DNA of 64,000 nucleotides, from the sequence record OZ335963.1, one strand, 5' to 3'. The translations under genes and the position numbers were made by a program. The notes under the pieces were generated by a model that searched no databases, was not told where the DNA came from, and worked only from the letters and a program-made list of their open reading frames with translations. Below, one piece after another: positions 56,355 through 64,000 of the stretch. Source of the DNA: a phage. Every line of letters begins with the position of its first letter. Positions within the stretch are counted from its first letter, which is position 1.

Positions 56355-59300
56355 ATGGCCGAGATTAAAAGAAAGTTCAGAGCAGAAGACGGTCTGGACG
56401 CAGGTGGCGATAAAATAATCAATGTAGCTTTAGCTGATCGTACCGTAGGAACTGACGGTGTTAACGTTGATTACTTAATTCAAGAAAACACAGTTCAACA
56501 ATATGATCCAACTCGTGGATATTTAAAAGATTTTGTAATCATTTATAATAATCGTTTTTGGGCAGCAACGGATAATATTCCAAAACCTGCTGGAAGTTTT
56601 AATAGAATTCGTTGGAAAGCATTACGTACTGATGCCGTATATACAACCGTATCATCTGGACCGTATCAATTAAAGTCCGGAGAAGCAATTTCAGTAGATA
56701 CATCAGTTGGTAATGACATTGAGTTTACTTTACCACCTTCTCCGCTCGATGGAGAAACAGTAATAATTCAAGATATCGGTGGAAAACCTGGTATAAATCA
56801 GGTTAAAATAAGTTCTTCAAATCAGAGCATTGTTAATTTTAGAGGTGAACAAGTACGTTCAGTTTTAATGACTCATCCAAAGTCACAGATGATATTCATT
56901 TTTAATAATCGTTTGTGGCAAATGTATGTTGCTGATTATAGCAGAGAAGCTGCAATTGTTACTCCATCGACTGCGTATCAAGCGCAATCTAATGATTTTA
57001 TCGTGCGTAGATTTACTTCCGCAGCGCCGATTAATATTAAACTTCCGAAATTTGCTAATCATGGCGATATTATTAATTTCGTTGATTTAGATAAATTAAA
57101 TCCTCTTTATCATACAATTGTCACGACATATGATGAAACAACTTCAGTACAAGAAGTTGGAACTCATTCCATTGAAGGCCGTACATCGATTGACGGTTTC
57201 TTGATGTTTGATGATAATGAAAAATTATGGAGATTGTTTGACGGGGATAGTAAAGCGCGTTTACGTATCATAACGACTAATTCTAATATTCGTCCAAATG
57301 AAGAAGTTATGGTATTTGGTGCGAATAACGGAACAGCCCAAACAATTGAACTTCAACTTCCAACCGATATTTCCATTGGTGATACTGTTAAAATTTCCAT
57401 GAATTACATGAGAAAAGGACAAACAGTTAAAATCAAAGCTGCCGGTGAAGATAAAATTGCTTCTTCAGTTCAATTGCTGCAATTCCCAAAACGCTCAGAA
57501 TATCCACCTGAAGCTGAATGGGTGACTGTTCAAGAATTAGTTTTTAATGGTGAAACTAATTATGTTCCAGTTTTACAGCTTGCTTATATTGAAGATTCTG
57601 ACGGAAAATACTGGGTAGTACAACAAAACGTTCCAACAGTTGAAAGAGTTGATTCTTTAAATAATTCTACTAGAGCAAGATTAGGCGTAATTGCTTTAGC
57701 TACACAAGCCCAAGCTAACGTCGATTTAGAAAATTCTCCACAAAAAGAATTAGCAATTACTCCAGAAACATTAGCTAACCGTACTGCTACAGAAACTCGT
57801 AGAGGTATCGCAAGAATAGCAACTACTGCTCAAGTAAATCAGAACACTACATTCTCTTTTGCTGATGACCTTATCATCACTCCTAAAAAGCTGAATGAAA
57901 GAACTGCTACAGAAACTCGTAGAGGTGTTGCTGAAATTGCTACGCAGCAGGAAACTAATACAGGTACTGATGATACTACAATCATCACTCCTAAAAAGCT
58001 TCAAGCTCGTCAAGGTTCTGAAACATTATCGGGTATTGTAACTTTTGTATCTACCGCAGGAGCTACTCCAGCCTCTAGTCGTGAATTAAATGGTACAAAT
58101 GTTTATAATAAAAATACTAATAATTTAGTTGTTTCGCCTAAAGCTTTGGATCAGTATAAAGCTACTCCAACACAACAAGGCGCAGTAATTTTAGCAGTTG
58201 AAAGTGAAGTAATTGCTGGACAGAGTCAAGAAGGATGGGCAAATGCGGTTGTAACGCCAGAAACGTTACATAAAAAAACATCAACTGATGGAAGAATTGG
58301 TTTAATTGAAATTGCTACGCAAAGCGAAGTTAATACAGGAACTGATTATACTCGCGCAGTCACTCCTAAAACTTTAAATGACCGTAGAGCAACTGAAAGT
58401 TTAAGTGGTATAGCTGAAATTGCTACACAAGTTGAATTCGACGCAGGCGTCGACGATACTCGTATCTCTACACCATTAAAAATTAAAACTAGATTTGATA
58501 GTACTGATCGTACTTCTGTTGTTGCTCTATCTGGATTAGTTGAATCAGGAACTCTCTGGGACCATTATACCCTTAATATTCTTGAAGCAAATGAGACACA
58601 ACGTGGTACACTTCGTGTGGCTACACAAGTTGAAGCTGCTGCAGGAACATTAGATAATGTTTTGATAACTCCTAAAAAGCTTTTAGGTACTAAATCTACT
58701 GAAGCGCAAGAAGGCGTTATTAAAGTTGCAACTCAAGTTGAAACTGTTACTGGAACGTCAGCAAATACTGCTGTATCTCCAAAAAATTTAAAATGGATTG
58801 TGCAGAGTGAACCTACTTGGGCAGCAACTACTTTGGTAAGAGGTTTTGTTAAAACTTCATCTGGTTCAATTACATTCGTTGGTAATGATACAGTTGGTTC
58901 AACACAGTCATTAGACTTGTACGAGAAAAATAGCTATGCAGTATCGCCATATGAATTAAACCGTGTATTAGCAAATTATTTGCCGTTAAAAGCAAAAGCT
59001 GTAGATAGTAATTTATTGGATGGTCTAGATTCATCTCAGTTCATTCGTAGGGATATTGCGCAGACGGTTAATGGTTCACTAACCTTAACACAACAAACGA
59101 ATCTGAGTGCCCCTCTTGTATCATCTAGTACTGCTACGTTTGGTGGATCAGTTTCGGCAAATAGTACATTAACTATTTCTAATACTGGAACGGCAACTCG
59201 TCTGATTTTTGAGAAAGGACCTCAAACTGGAACGAACCCAGCGCAGACGATGACAGTCAGAGTGTGGGGAAATCAATTCAGCGGTGAATCGGACACAACA

Positions 59301-60224
59301 CGTTCTACTGTATTTGAAGTTAGTGATGAAACTTCTAGTCATTTTTATTCTCAGCGTAATAAAGCTGGTAATATAACATTTAATATCAATGGTACAGTAA
59401 CGCCGATAAATGTTAATGCTTCAGGAACATTGAATGCGAATGGCGTAGCAACATTCGGCAGTTCGGTTACTGCTAATGGCGAATTTATCAGTAAATCATC
59501 GAATGCTTTTAGAGCAATAAACGGTGATTATGGATTCTTTATTCGTAATGATGGTGCTAACACCTATTTTATGCTTACTGCATCTGGTGATCAGACCGGT
59601 GGATTTAATGGATTACGTCCTTTAACTATTAATAATGCATCTGGTCAAGTAACGATTGGTGAAAGCTTGATCATTGCTAAAGGTGCTACTATAAATTCAG
59701 GTGGTTTAACTGTTAACTCGAGAATTCGTTCTCAGGGTACTAAAACCTCTGATTTATATACCCGTGCGCCAACATCTGATACTGTAGGATTCTGGTCAAT
59801 CGATATTAATGATTCAGCCACTTATAACCAGTTCCCGGGTTATTTTAAGATGGTTGAAAAAACTAATGAAGTGACTGGGCTTCCATACTTAGAACGTGGT
59901 GAAGAAGTTAAATCTCCTGGTACATTGACCCAGTTTGGTAACACACTTGATTCGCTTTACCAAGATTGGATTACTTATCCAACGACTCCAGAAGCACGTA
60001 CCACTCGCTGGACACGTACATGGCAGAAAACCAAAAACTCTTGGTCAAGTTTTGTTCAGGTATTTGACGGAGGTAACCCTCCTCAACCTTCAGATATAGG
60101 AGCGATCCCATCTGATAACGGAATAATAGGTAATCTTACTATTCGCGATTTCTTACGAATTGGTAATGTTCGCATTATTCCTGACCCAGTGAATAAAACT
60201 GTTAAATTTGAGTGGATTGAATAA
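56355..60224 (+). CDS. 34: Long tail fiber proximal subunit
   Basis: 1289-aa ORF, T4 gp34 length; internal ~40-aa repeats; late promoter upstream. Confidence 0.97.
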   Translation: MAEIKRKFRAEDGLDAGGDKIINVALADRTVGTDGVNVDYLIQENTVQQYDPTRGYLKDFVIIYNNRFWAATDNIPKPAGSFNRIRWKALRTDAVYTTVSSGPYQLKSGEAISVDTSVGNDIEFTLPPSPLDGETVIIQDIGGKPGINQVKISSSNQSIVNFRGEQVRSVLMTHPKSQMIFIFNNRLWQMYVADYSREAAIVTPSTAYQAQSNDFIVRRFTSAAPINIKLPKFANHGDIINFVDLDKLNPLYHTIVTTYDETTSVQEVGTHSIEGRTSIDGFLMFDDNEKLWRLFDGDSKARLRIITTNSNIRPNEEVMVFGANNGTAQTIELQLPTDISIGDTVKISMNYMRKGQTVKIKAAGEDKIASSVQLLQFPKRSEYPPEAEWVTVQELVFNGETNYVPVLQLAYIEDSDGKYWVVQQNVPTVERVDSLNNSTRARLGVIALATQAQANVDLENSPQKELAITPETLANRTATETRRGIARIATTAQVNQNTTFSFADDLIITPKKLNERTATETRRGVAEIATQQETNTGTDDTTIITPKKLQARQGSETLSGIVTFVSTAGATPASSRELNGTNVYNKNTNNLVVSPKALDQYKATPTQQGAVILAVESEVIAGQSQEGWANAVVTPETLHKKTSTDGRIGLIEIATQSEVNTGTDYTRAVTPKTLNDRRATESLSGIAEIATQVEFDAGVDDTRISTPLKIKTRFDSTDRTSVVALSGLVESGTLWDHYTLNILEANETQRGTLRVATQVEAAAGTLDNVLITPKKLLGTKSTEAQEGVIKVATQVETVTGTSANTAVSPKNLKWIVQSEPTWAATTLVRGFVKTSSGSITFVGNDTVGSTQSLDLYEKNSYAVSPYELNRVLANYLPLKAKAVDSNLLDGLDSSQFIRRDIAQTVNGSLTLTQQTNLSAPLVSSSTATFGGSVSANSTLTISNTGTATRLIFEKGPQTGTNPAQTMTVRVWGNQFSGESDTTRSTVFEVSDETSSHFYSQRNKAGNITFNINGTVTPINVNASGTLNANGVATFGSSVTANGEFISKSSNAFRAINGDYGFFIRNDGANTYFMLTASGDQTGGFNGLRPLTINNASGQVTIGESLIIAKGATINSGGLTVNSRIRSQGTKTSDLYTRAPTSDTVGFWSIDINDSATYNQFPGYFKMVEKTNEVTGLPYLERGEEVKSPGTLTQFGNTLDSLYQDWITYPTTPEARTTRWTRTWQKTKNSWSSFVQVFDGGNPPQPSDIGAIPSDNGIIGNLTIRDFLRIGNVRIIPDPVNKTVKFEWIE
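57740..58800 (+). repeat. Array of ~40-codon (120-nt) repeats inside gene 34
   Basis: ACTGCTACAGAAACTCGTAGAGGT identical at 57782 and 57902; ATCATCACTCCTAAAAAGCT at 57874 and 57981; protein motif TxTRRG..IAT...TPKKL recurs about 7 times. Confidence 0.8.
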
Positions 60225-60232
60225 GAGGTATT

Positions 60233-61348
60233 ATGGAAAAATTTATGGCAGAGTTTGGACAAGGATATGTCCAAACGCCATTTTTATCGGAAAGTAATTC
60301 AGTAAGATACAAAATAAGTATAGCGGGTTCTTGCCCGCTTTCCACAGCAGGACCGTATGTTAAATTTCAAGATAACCCAGTTGGAAATCAAACATTTAGT
60401 GCAGGTCTTCATTTAAGAGTTTTTGATCCTTCTACGGGAGCATTAGTTGATAGTAAGTCATATGCTTTTTCTACTTCAAATAATACTACATCAGCTGCTT
60501 TTGTTAGTTTCATGAATTCTTTGTCAAACAATAGACTTGCTGCTATATTGACTAGCGGAAAGGTTAATTTTCCTCCTGAAGTGGTATCTTGGCTAAGGAA
60601 AGCAGGAACTTCAGTTTTTCCATCAGATTCAGTATTGTCAAGATTTGACGTATCATATGCTGCTTTTTACACTTCTTCTAAAAGAGCTATTGCATTAGAA
60701 CATGTTAAACTAAGTAATAGAAAAAGCACAGATGATTATCAAACTATTTTAGATGTTGTATTTGACAGCTTAGAAGATGTTGGGGCGACAGGATTTCCTA
60801 AAAGAACATATGAAAGTGTCGAGCAATTTATGTCAGCGGTTGGTGGAACTAATAACGAAATTGCGCGATTGCCAACTTCAGCTGCTATAAGTAAACTTTC
60901 TGACTATAATTTAATTCCTGGTGATGTTCTTTATCTTAAAGCACAGTTATATGCTGATGCTGATTTACTTGATCTTGGAACTACAAATATATCCATTCGT
61001 TTTTATGATGCATCAAATGGATATATTTCTTCGACACAGGCTGAGTTTACTGGACAAGCTGGATCTTGGGAATTAAAGGAAGATTATGTAGTTGTTCCTG
61101 AAAATGCAGTCGGATTTACGATATATGCACAGAGAACTGCTCAAGCTGGTCAAGGCGGCATGAGGAATTTAAGTTTTTCTGAAGTGTCAAGAAATGGCGG
61201 CATTTCAAAACCTGCCGAATTTGGCGTCAATGGTATTCGCGTTAATTATGTCTGTGAATCGGCTTCACCTCCAGATATAATGGTACTTCCTACACAAGCA
61301 TCGTCTAAAACTGGCAAAGTATTTGGGCAAGAATTTAGAGAAGTTTAA
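60233..61348 (+). CDS. 35: Long tail fiber hinge (knee) protein
   Basis: 371-aa ORF at the T4 gp35 position. Confidence 0.9.
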   Translation: MEKFMAEFGQGYVQTPFLSESNSVRYKISIAGSCPLSTAGPYVKFQDNPVGNQTFSAGLHLRVFDPSTGALVDSKSYAFSTSNNTTSAAFVSFMNSLSNNRLAAILTSGKVNFPPEVVSWLRKAGTSVFPSDSVLSRFDVSYAAFYTSSKRAIALEHVKLSNRKSTDDYQTILDVVFDSLEDVGATGFPKRTYESVEQFMSAVGGTNNEIARLPTSAAISKLSDYNLIPGDVLYLKAQLYADADLLDLGTTNISIRFYDASNGYISSTQAEFTGQAGSWELKEDYVVVPENAVGFTIYAQRTAQAGQGGMRNLSFSEVSRNGGISKPAEFGVNGIRVNYVCESASPPDIMVLPTQASSKTGKVFGQEFREV

Positions 61349-61410: not shown

Positions 61411-62061
61411 ATGGCTGATTTAAAAGTAGGTTCAACTGTGGGTGGATCTGTCATTTGGCATCAAGGAAATTTTCCATTGAATTCAGCCGGTGACGATGTA
61501 CTCTACAAATCATTTAAAATATATTCAGAATATAATAAACCGCAGGCAGCTGATAACGATTTCGTTTCTAAAGCTAATGGTGGTACTTACACCGGTCCAG
61601 TTACTATTAATTATGGTGTAAATAGTTATCTTCAATTAAGTAATAATGAAACCCCCATTCGAATTCGTTCTGGTGGCGGTACCGGTAATACTCTTGTAGT
61701 TGGCGGCTCTTCTGGCGGTATTAGTTTTAGACCTGCAGGTAGTGAAATCACAACTGGACAAATTACTATTACGCAAGAAGGTTTGACAACATTTACTAGG
61801 GCTGTAACGGCTCCATCTGTAACTGTTACATCTACTCCTTCCGCAGCATCTGATGTTACTCGTAAAGATTATGTTGATGGAGCAATAAATACTGTTACAG
61901 CAAATGCAAACTCTAGAGTGTTACGATCTGGTGACACCATGACAGGAAATTTAACTGCGCCAAACCTTTTTTCACAGAATCCTGCATCTCAACCTTCACA
62001 CGTTCCACGATTTGACCAAATCGTAATTAAGGATTCTGTTCAAGATTTCGGCTATTATTAA
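61411..62061 (+). CDS. 36: Long tail fiber proximal-distal connector
   Basis: 216-aa ORF; late promoter and terminator upstream. Confidence 0.88.
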
Positions 62062-62069
62062 GAGGACTT

Positions 62070-64000
62070 ATGGCTACTTTAAAACAAATACAATTTAAAA
62101 GAAGCAAAACTGCAGGTCAACTTCCTGCTGCTTCAGTATTAGCCGAAGGTGAATTGGCTATTAATTTAAAAGATAAAACAATTTTCACAAAAGATGACTC
62201 AGGCAATGTTATAGAATTAGGTTTAAAATATGGAGGAACAATTGATGGTTCTTTAACTGTTAATGGAAATATAATTGGAAATTTAACAGGTAACGCTGCA
62301 ACTGCAACGAAATTAAAAACAGCACGAAAAATTAATGGTATATCCTTTGATGGGTCAAAAGATATCACGCTAACTCCATCTGACATAAATGTCAATAGCA
62401 CAACGTTTATAAAAAATAACGGCGAATTACCGGTTGATGCTAATTTAGATGAGTATGGGCCTGTTGAAGAATATCTTGGAGTTTGGTCGAAAGCAACTTC
62501 AACCAACGCTCAACCAGCAAATAAATTTCCAGAAGACAATGCTGTAGGTGTGCTAGAAGTATTTGTGGCCGGTCAATTTGCTGGTACTCAGAGATATACA
62601 ACTAGATACGGAAATGTTTATATTCGTTCCTTGACTGCTACATGGAACGGAGTAAATGGTCCGTGGAGTGTGTGGCGAAATATTCAATCCGGTACTCGTC
62701 CACTGTCAACAACAATTGATCTTAATGATCTAGGAGGCGCTGAACACCTTGGTTTGTGGCGAAATAGTTCAAATTCCATTGCTACATTTGACAGAAATTT
62801 CCCAGAAGAGGGGTCGTCAGCTCAAGGTCTTTTGGAAGTATATGAAGGTGGAAACTATTCTCGTACACAAAGATATACAACCAGATTTGGTGTTGTTTAT
62901 ACTCGTTGTCTTGCTGCCGCGTGGGATTCTACTGCGCCTAAATGGGGACCGTGGCAACAAGTCGGTAATGTCACACCAGCGACTTTTTATGATGGAGATC
63001 TGAATGATTTTAAAACTCCTGGGTTATATAATATTTTAGGCACTGATGCCGTTATTAATTGTCCTACAGGCGAAGGTTTACCAGCCGTTATTGTTGGTTT
63101 GCTGGAAGTTAAACAGCGTGCTTCTGGTGGTGCTATTTTCCAAAAATTTACTACTGCCGGAACAGGTGCAACTACCCGCGATCGTATTTTTGAGCGCGCA
63201 TATACCGGCGGTGTGTGGGGTGAATGGAACGAAGTATACACATCTTATTCTCTACCAATTACTTTGGGTATGGGCGGTATTAAATCTAACTTAGCAGAGT
63301 TAGACTGGCAAGCATTTGATTTTGTTCCTGGTAGTATGTTTAGCGTTCCTTTGAACAAAATAAAGAACATGCCAGCTAATATGGATTGGGGTACGATTGA
63401 CGGAAACTTAATTATGTTTTCTGTTGGTCCTAGCGAGCACACCAGTACAGGACGTACTGTTCAAGTTTGGCGTGGAACTGTATCCCAGACAAACTATCGT
63501 TATTTTGTCGTTCGTGTATTCGGTAATCCAGGGAGTAGAACATGTACAGTTCGACGCGTTGTTCTTGAAGACGGATCACATACTTGGACTGCTAAACAAG
63601 ATTTTAATGGCGCAGTTAACTTTAACTCTACTGTTAACCTTAATAACACTACCACATTTAAAACAGAAGTTAAATTCCGCTCGTTGAATGCATTCCGTAT
63701 GTATGGCGGAAAATTTGGTACATTTTTACGTAATGATGGAGAGAGTCTTTATATTCTTTCCACCGACGAAGATGATCAAGATGGAAACTTTAATACAAAT
63801 AGACCTTTCCGTTATGAATTAAGAACTGGTGATGTTACTTTAGGTGGTACTAGTGGTGCTAACGTTTTAAAATTAAAACGTGATTCTCTCACCGCATTTT
63901 TTGGTGGTGATATTAACATGAAAGGCTTGCTGACTTTTGACGCCGGACGTTTAGGATCACGAGATTATTTTAAATTTAACCATTGGGGTGATAGTAATAA
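62070..64000 (+). CDS. 37: Long tail fiber distal subunit, 5' partial (runs off window end)
   Basis: Hand-translated frame from ATG 62070 ([13 protein letters not shown]...) read without a stop to 64000; not in ORF track because no stop in window. Confidence 0.85.
62440..63240 (+). repeat. Three tandem ~90-aa knob-like domain repeats in gp37
   Basis: Each repeat carries DLND/NLDE...G.W...FPE...LEV...QRYTTR.G.VY.R...W; coordinates approximate. Confidence 0.7.

Follow-up and report, generated by a model that had tools for sequence, protein, structure and literature searches.

A T6-type cassette of three tandem pyocin-knob domains in gp37 of a T4-like phage, with a probable architectural role

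The 3' end of the window, by which we mean the whole stretch of 64,000 nucleotides of phage DNA analysed here (record OZ335963.1), is occupied by the cluster of long-tail-fibre genes of a T4-like phage, a Tequatrovirus. Upstream of gene 37 the cluster comprises the genes for gp34 (56355-60224), gp35 (60233-61348; 371 aa) and gp36 (61411-62061), the last of which directly precedes gene 37. Gene 37 encodes the distal subunit of the long tail fibre; it starts with an ATG at 62070 on the plus strand and is represented by its 5' part (62070-64000), 643 codons that are still open at the window end. Its best overall match in the phage collection is to Shigella phages SF2-1 and SHFML-26, with 98.0% nucleotide identity. 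In the RefSeq record of SHFML-26 (NC_031011; locus L001, 3339-4278) gp35 is only 200 aa long and has a small reverse ORF upstream, against 371 aa in the window; the short form is probably due to a frameshift or a mis-annotation.

The available part of gp37 is composed of several consecutive segments, all on the plus strand. The N-terminal one, aa 1-66 (62070-62267), is presumably the adaptor that joins gp37 to gp36, a role that we carry over from T4; it is 79% identical to aa 1-66 of T4 gp37, 89-100% to the other Tequatrovirus gp37s compared and 91-100% to two IMG/VR contigs with the same N-terminus, in agreement with the conserved segment noticed in a previous inspection of the DNA (the sequence-only reading). 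It is followed by a linker (aa 67-120, 62268-62429) containing the GNAATATKL motif (aa 74-96, 62289-62357), and then by three tandem domains of about 85 aa each, which together span 62430-63236: Knob1 (K1, aa 121-205, 62430-62684; HMM envelope i-E 5.7e-31), with five predicted beta-strands; Knob2 (K2, aa 213-298, 62706-62963; i-E 2.1e-28); and Knob3 (K3, aa 307-389, 62988-63236; i-E 2.8e-16), a diverged third copy with the same strand pattern. The knob cassette is accompanied by an unnamed domain of about 110 aa, here called domain 4 (aa 395-505, 63252-63584), which is matched by no Pfam or NCBIfam model. A gp34-like trimerisation domain (aa 519-581, 63624-63812; Pfam PF21446 Gp34_trimer, E 7.8e-13) comes next, and its sequence matches the T4 gp34 entries 4uxe and 5nxf of the PDB with E of about 2e-8. 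Two minus-strand ORFs of 129 aa (62117-62506) and 84 aa (62987-63241) run antisense to the knob-coding region; they are most likely spurious because they are unsupported and start with TTG or GTG.

K1, K2 and K3 are homologous to one another, K3 being diverged. The sequence-only reading had placed three tandem knob-like domains of about 90 aa at 62440-63240 (gp37 aa 124-390), and the repeat is confirmed, with the slightly shorter domains given above. It is clearest between K1 and K2 (aa 120-212 against aa 213-306), which are 37% identical and align with a Smith-Waterman score of 163, compared with 28 +/- 5.6 for shuffled sequences (z = 24; none of 1000 shuffles as good). The K2-K3 pair is marginal (z = 3.5; 11 of 1000 shuffles as good). 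The idea that there is no real repeat, and that the likeness of the three segments comes from chance or low complexity, could find some comfort in the K1-K3 pair, insignificant when taken alone (z = 1.4; 90 of 1000 shuffles as good), and in the self-BLASTP of the 643-aa gp37, which gave the diagonal only, the repeat being seen by Smith-Waterman with shuffles and by profiles. In fact, an HMM built from K1 and K2 only and iterated over 176 homologous proteins recovered K3 (aa 307-389) in the second round with an i-E of 1e-5, which reached 3.5e-15 by the fourth, and hhalign of the K1/K2-seeded profile against a K3-seeded one gave a probability of 98.6% and an E of 5.2e-15 over 76 columns. Moreover, an AlphaFold2 monomer model of aa 101-400, of moderate confidence (mean pLDDT 74.7, pTM 0.39), displays an identical five-strand pattern three times, so that the structure prediction proposed by the sequence-only reading also speaks for three copies. 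The shuffles with their z of 24, the iterated HMM, the profile-profile comparison, the shared predicted strand pattern and the independent match to solved pyocin knobs described below refute a chance or low-complexity repeat, to which we give next to no credence. At the DNA level the knobs share scraps of 14-15 nt only, and direct repeats are negligible; since almost nothing repeats at this level, the triplication can be considered ancient.

The domains were identified through a profile. Pfam leaves the knob region of gp37 unmatched, Gp34_trimer being the sole match above threshold, NCBIfam yields nothing significant, and a search of the PDB with the whole gp37 sequence returns gp34-like matches only; homologues from E. 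coli carry the NCBI name "pyocin knob domain-containing protein". A profile of 54 diverse gp37-type knobs (alignment A2) matches the R2 pyocin fibre 6CL6 with an E of 8.1e-16, positions 2-73 of the 74 of the model falling on chain residues 138-207, and more weakly the preceding knob. Judging by its position after the weaker upstream one, this match, whose residue numbers are those of the construct, is presumably on Knob2 (published residues 445-528). The same profile also matches 6CT8/6CU2 (5.9e-13), the R1 fibre 6CL5 (4e-12), an F2-pyocin fibre, the fibre of phage P68 and the phi812 receptor-binding protein. The predicted fold is that of the pyocin knob, about 85 aa with five or six strands in an antiparallel beta-sheet that is covered by long, curved loops, and by sequence profile and modelled fold together K1-K3 are true pyocin-knob domains (CDD "pyocin_knob"). 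Thus the label "knob-like" was well chosen, and a profile search of the kind suggested with it does reach pyocin fibre structures although neither Pfam nor NCBIfam has a knob model; the signature quoted at the time (DLN-, G-W/Y, -P-, LEV, Q-YT/FTT, R, W--W) turns out to agree with the family consensus, and all 54 aligned sequences share P34, R66 and W82. The knobs of gp37 are homologous to Knob1 and Knob2 of the R-type pyocin fibres (P. aeruginosa PA0620; PDB 6CL5, 6CL6, 6CU2; Buth et al. 2018), with three differences: (i) the pyocin fibre has two knobs and gp37 three; (ii) the pyocin knobs are about 100 Å from the lectin foot, whereas those of gp37 fall within the first third of a fibre of 1000 aa, a long way from its tip; (iii) at the tip of the gp37 fibre a separate gp38 adhesin is expected, in contrast to the R-pyocin fibre.

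How far this region departs from T4 gp37, which the sequence-only reading could not gauge, is answered by the alignment with T4, T6 and RB phages that it proposed. T4 gp37 (NP_049863) has the same gene position, but its alignment with the window protein is limited to aa 1-66 and to a short stretch (aa 519-593) of the gp34-like domain that both have, so the two are far from near-identical. With the knob HMM no match is found in T4 gp37, gp35 and gp36, and only a weak one in the gp34 C-terminus (i-E 0.012); BLASTP likewise reveals no cassette in T4 gp37. The tips also differ, T4 gp37 having a Collar/needle tip and a gp38 chaperone, compared with the S74 chaperone and gp38 adhesin of the relatives of the window phage. 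T6, RB14, RB32 and RB6 do have the cassette, and the triple knobs occupy identical coordinates in their gp37s and in those of Nami and SHFML-26. The whole order found in the window, namely adaptor, GNAATATKL linker, K1-K2-K3 at aa 121-389, domain 4 and gp34-like domain, is that of the T6-like gp37s (T6, RB14, RB32, RB6, IP008, fPS-90, SHFML-26), which end, where the full gene is known, in an S74 chaperone followed by the gp38 adhesin. Differences from T6 are allelic only, with identities of 86% in K1, 73% in K2 and 95% in K3. The pyocin knob has already been described as a mobile pseudo-domain of tail fibres (PMC12143355). Because of this description and of the wide distribution of the T6-type architecture, which is present in many sequenced phages and is, on sequence comparison, the architecture of the window gp37, the feature is already known.

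The cassette is widespread and seems to travel. In the phage collection, from which the T-even relatives for comparison were drawn, knob DNA is matched by 217 records, of which 188 cover 80% or more of it, with nucleotide identities of 75-99.5% in Straboviridae and about 66-70% in Peduovirus and other temperate-phage records; a search for related loci in IMG/VR gave nine. A library of 1.84 billion representative proteins yielded 172 proteins at E<=0.001. A separate search for homologous proteins returned no T-even gp37, its best match being E. coli prophage fragments at 62% identity. The number of knobs varies from one to six per protein. Two proteins of the representative library, P0029 (1300 aa) and P0040 (1182 aa), carry two full K1-K2-K3 cassettes, that is six knobs each, and thus the triple cassette seems to be the unit of duplication. 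T-even gp37 and P2-like prophage fibres alike always have domain 4 after the three knobs; compared with the window, it is 79-100% identical in T-even relatives and 57% identical in the equivalent part of the P2-like H fibre.

In the H fibres of P2-like phages (Peduovirus) and the side tail fibres of E. coli prophages, the block K1-K2-K3-domain 4 is found in the same order at aa 242-508, with identities to the window of 68% (K1), 70% (K2), 46% (K3) and 57% (domain 4). The surroundings of the block are different: the N-terminus consists of a PF12571 baseplate-attachment domain and PF03406 repeats, and the tip is of gp37_C type, accompanied by a tail-fibre assembly protein. In P2-like fibres the GNAATATKL motif comes after the cassette, in T-even ones such as that of the window ahead of it, and these opposite positions make it a possible junction of recombination or shuffling. 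It occurs once in the window and in 13 of 175 homologous fibre proteins, in up to five copies at 40-aa spacing, and it is located 47 aa ahead of the cassette both in the window and in the prophage protein P0002; in fibre protein P0032 (aa 833-1086) it forms a 40-aa periodic repeat of five copies. Tail-fibre mosaicism between virulent T-even and temperate P2-like phages has long been known, and the present locus is one more well-documented case. In Escherichia phage UPWr_E1, whose record is filed under Krischvirus (locus L021, 3125-6169), the cassette is at aa 58-326 of the fibre; the N-terminus is only 48% identical to that of the window while Knob2 is 94% identical, hence a recent transfer of the cassette between genera appears likely. 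The UPWr_E1 fibre gene is not followed by a gp38-like gene.

At its distal side the cassette is joined to three kinds of fibre end: (i) in most T-even relatives, a Peptidase_S74 intramolecular chaperone, the gp38 adhesin being encoded downstream; (ii) in Salmonella phage Lv5cm, a gp37_trimer/Collar tip of T4 type, together with a gp38 chaperone of T4 type; (iii) in the P2-like fibre, gp37_C and a tail-fibre assembly protein. The Lv5cm locus (MZ150757; L018, 2936-5722 and 5827-6378) combines a T6-type triple-knob N-terminal half with the T4-type tip (gp37_trimer, Collar) and chaperone, and by its domain content this fibre is a natural chimera of the two classic fibre types. The module swap that the sequence-only reading had put forward is therefore supported, by T4 lacking the cassette, by the three fibre-tip kinds and the P2-like prophage fibres that have it, and by the mosaic Knob2 alleles described below. 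Gene 38 and the last part of gene 37 lie beyond the window, and the tip type of the window phage is deduced from relatives at 94-98% identity; those at 94% or above that were read through all have S74 plus adhesin, including locus L023, whose gp36 is identical. The exact look-up by gp36 gave relatives at 96-97% only. Peptidase_S74 was found by Pfam scan in SHFML-26, T6, RB14, RB32, RB6, OMNI12, C2-3, VIPECOOM01 and UPWr_E1, and by precomputed Pfam annotation in L023; GP38 and Gp38_N were found by scan in SHFML-26 (E 3.8e-72) and by precomputed annotation in L023. T6, Nami and RB14 have after gp37 a gene of about 260-270 aa annotated as tail fibre adhesin or tail fibre protein. That gp38 acts as the adhesin in T2/T6-type phages is also taken as a premise in PMC12032242. 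In Yersinia phage fPS-90, whose knobs are 97.7% identical to the window at the nucleotide level, recognition of the receptors OmpF and LPS core was attributed to Gp38, and the alignment of Gp37 did not track receptor specificity (PMC7917993).

In a comparison of 14 Tequatrovirus gp37 sequences, the N-terminal 505 aa vary most in Knob2. Its mean pairwise amino acid difference is 0.23, compared with 0.09 for Knob1 and 0.11 for Knob3 and with domain 4 within 0.09-0.11, that is, it is 2-2.5 times as variable as the other knobs. In Knob2, 39 of 57 loop positions vary against 9 of 29 strand positions, as loops and strands are predicted, and pooling the three knobs loops remain more variable than strands (Mann-Whitney p 8e-5). 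Pairwise Nei-Gojobori dN/dS, a coarse measure that would miss site-specific positive selection, is 0.15 for Knob1, 0.16 for Knob2, 0.18 for Knob3 and 0.13 for domain 4; in Knob2 dS climbs in parallel with dN and is saturating at about 1.2. The Knob2 allele of the window is of the Nami / SHFML-26 / UPWr_E1 type. T-even alleles are 72-79% identical to each other and 70-74% to prophage alleles, and that of Lv5cm is 66% identical to prophage alleles and 53-59% to the other T-even ones; alleles are mosaic, with the T-even and prophage classes interleaved. We considered and rejected a "hypervariable adaptive module", since the dN/dS of Knob2 is like that of the neighbouring segments and its dS is saturating. 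Because dS rises with dN and dN/dS equals that of the neighbours, the variation fits recombinational exchange of old alleles that are under purifying selection, and not a locally hypervariable receptor-binding surface.

From these results we consider it quite probable that K1-K3 are an architectural and exchangeable shaft cassette and that the receptor is read by the gp38 adhesin. As established for T4, gp37 is a homotrimer. In R-pyocin crystal structures the knob is trimeric, with its sheets buried at the three-fold axis (PMC6116203). In a parallel gp37 trimer the five-stranded antiparallel sheets of the three chains would, for each segment of about 85 aa, be packed around the three-fold axis with their loops outside, and the distal half-fibre would bear, near the knee, a row of three globular beads right after the gp36-joining N-terminus. 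Such beads could nucleate the trimer and set its register, and they would lengthen and stiffen the shaft. The cassette would be a self-contained building block, and its exchange can be seen: together with domain 4 it moves as a unit among T-even gp37s, other Straboviridae fibres and P2-like prophage fibres, and it is joined to unrelated receptor-binding tips. In the lineage of the window phage, a gp38 adhesin docked on the processed gp37 C-terminus beyond the window end would most probably read the receptor.

The job of the knobs is most likely architectural. The variability of Knob2 in its predicted loops, which resembles that of R-pyocin Knob2, is a point against it, and several alternatives have to be weighed. 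The sequence-only reading had seen in the knobs the likely host-range determinant, a receptor- or glycan-binding module that decides which bacteria are infected. Knob-like domains are known in saccharide-binding fibres, Knob2 is the most diverse region of R-pyocins, where it has been proposed to shape the killing spectrum (PMC6116203), and Knob2 is also the most variable knob here; nevertheless our results do not support this role, which we judge very unlikely. In fact, the knobs are situated near the knee, in the N-terminal part of gp37 and well away from the tip, one and the same cassette stands behind three unrelated tips, all close relatives have S74 chaperone plus GP38 adhesin, specificity in fPS-90 was assigned to gp38, and dN/dS is about 0.16. 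That the knobs serve as a docking surface, touching the fibritin whiskers, the sheath or the head during fibre retraction or attachment, is suggested by the closeness of the cassette to the gp35/gp36 knee, since according to Granell et al. 2017 (PMC5537660) it is through the knee that fibres attach to the whiskers when retracted; however, T4 gp37 does without the cassette despite the same gp34-gp36 fibre set, and the cassette also works in P2-like fibres, the loci of which, as read here (L004, L010-L014), have no gp35/gp36-type knee genes beside the fibre gene, which makes this role highly improbable.

An auxiliary binding site is somewhat more probable, though we still regard it as unlikely. 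Knob2 or the whole cassette would weakly bind a surface glycan (LPS core, O-antigen or capsule), and this second contact, as in the two-site model proposed for R-pyocins, would orient or concentrate the fibre and modulate the host range without defining it. The deeply divergent Knob2 classes, interleaved with prophage alleles, and the gathering of their variation in predicted surface loops are consistent with such a site, and there is a precedent in the pyocins, whose Knob2 was proposed to contribute to LPS binding (PMC6116203). On the other hand, a dS that parallels dN and the low dN/dS point to imported old alleles under purifying selection and not to local adaptive diversification, and loops more variable than strands are also expected from relaxed constraint alone. 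In T4 the knee end of the distal half-fibre is tens of nanometres from the receptor-binding tip. If the present fibre has that geometry, the knobs would be equally far from the contact. It is rather doubtful that the Knob2 classes mark a second, glycan-reading contact on the T6-type fibre, of the kind proposed for R-pyocin Knob2, that would tune host range independently of gp38; if they did, this polymorphism would be kept by exchange between virulent and temperate phages.

The practical value of the analysis is in the domain boundaries of the N-terminal half of T6-type gp37, a region unannotated by Pfam and NCBIfam, which can be used in annotation and engineering. K1-K2-K3 and domain 4 behave as one portable unit that goes with three or more kinds of fibre tip, and this portability suggests where chimeric fibres could safely be cut. 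The cassette is probably not what chooses the host, and knob variation in gp37 should not be taken as a host-range determinant where the phage carries a gp38 adhesin. As regards annotation, the public gene call in locus L023 (GCA_039690175.1, 6660-9626) covers the last 445 aa of gp37 while the full 988-aa ORF is open; the short call is an annotation artefact of the source collection.
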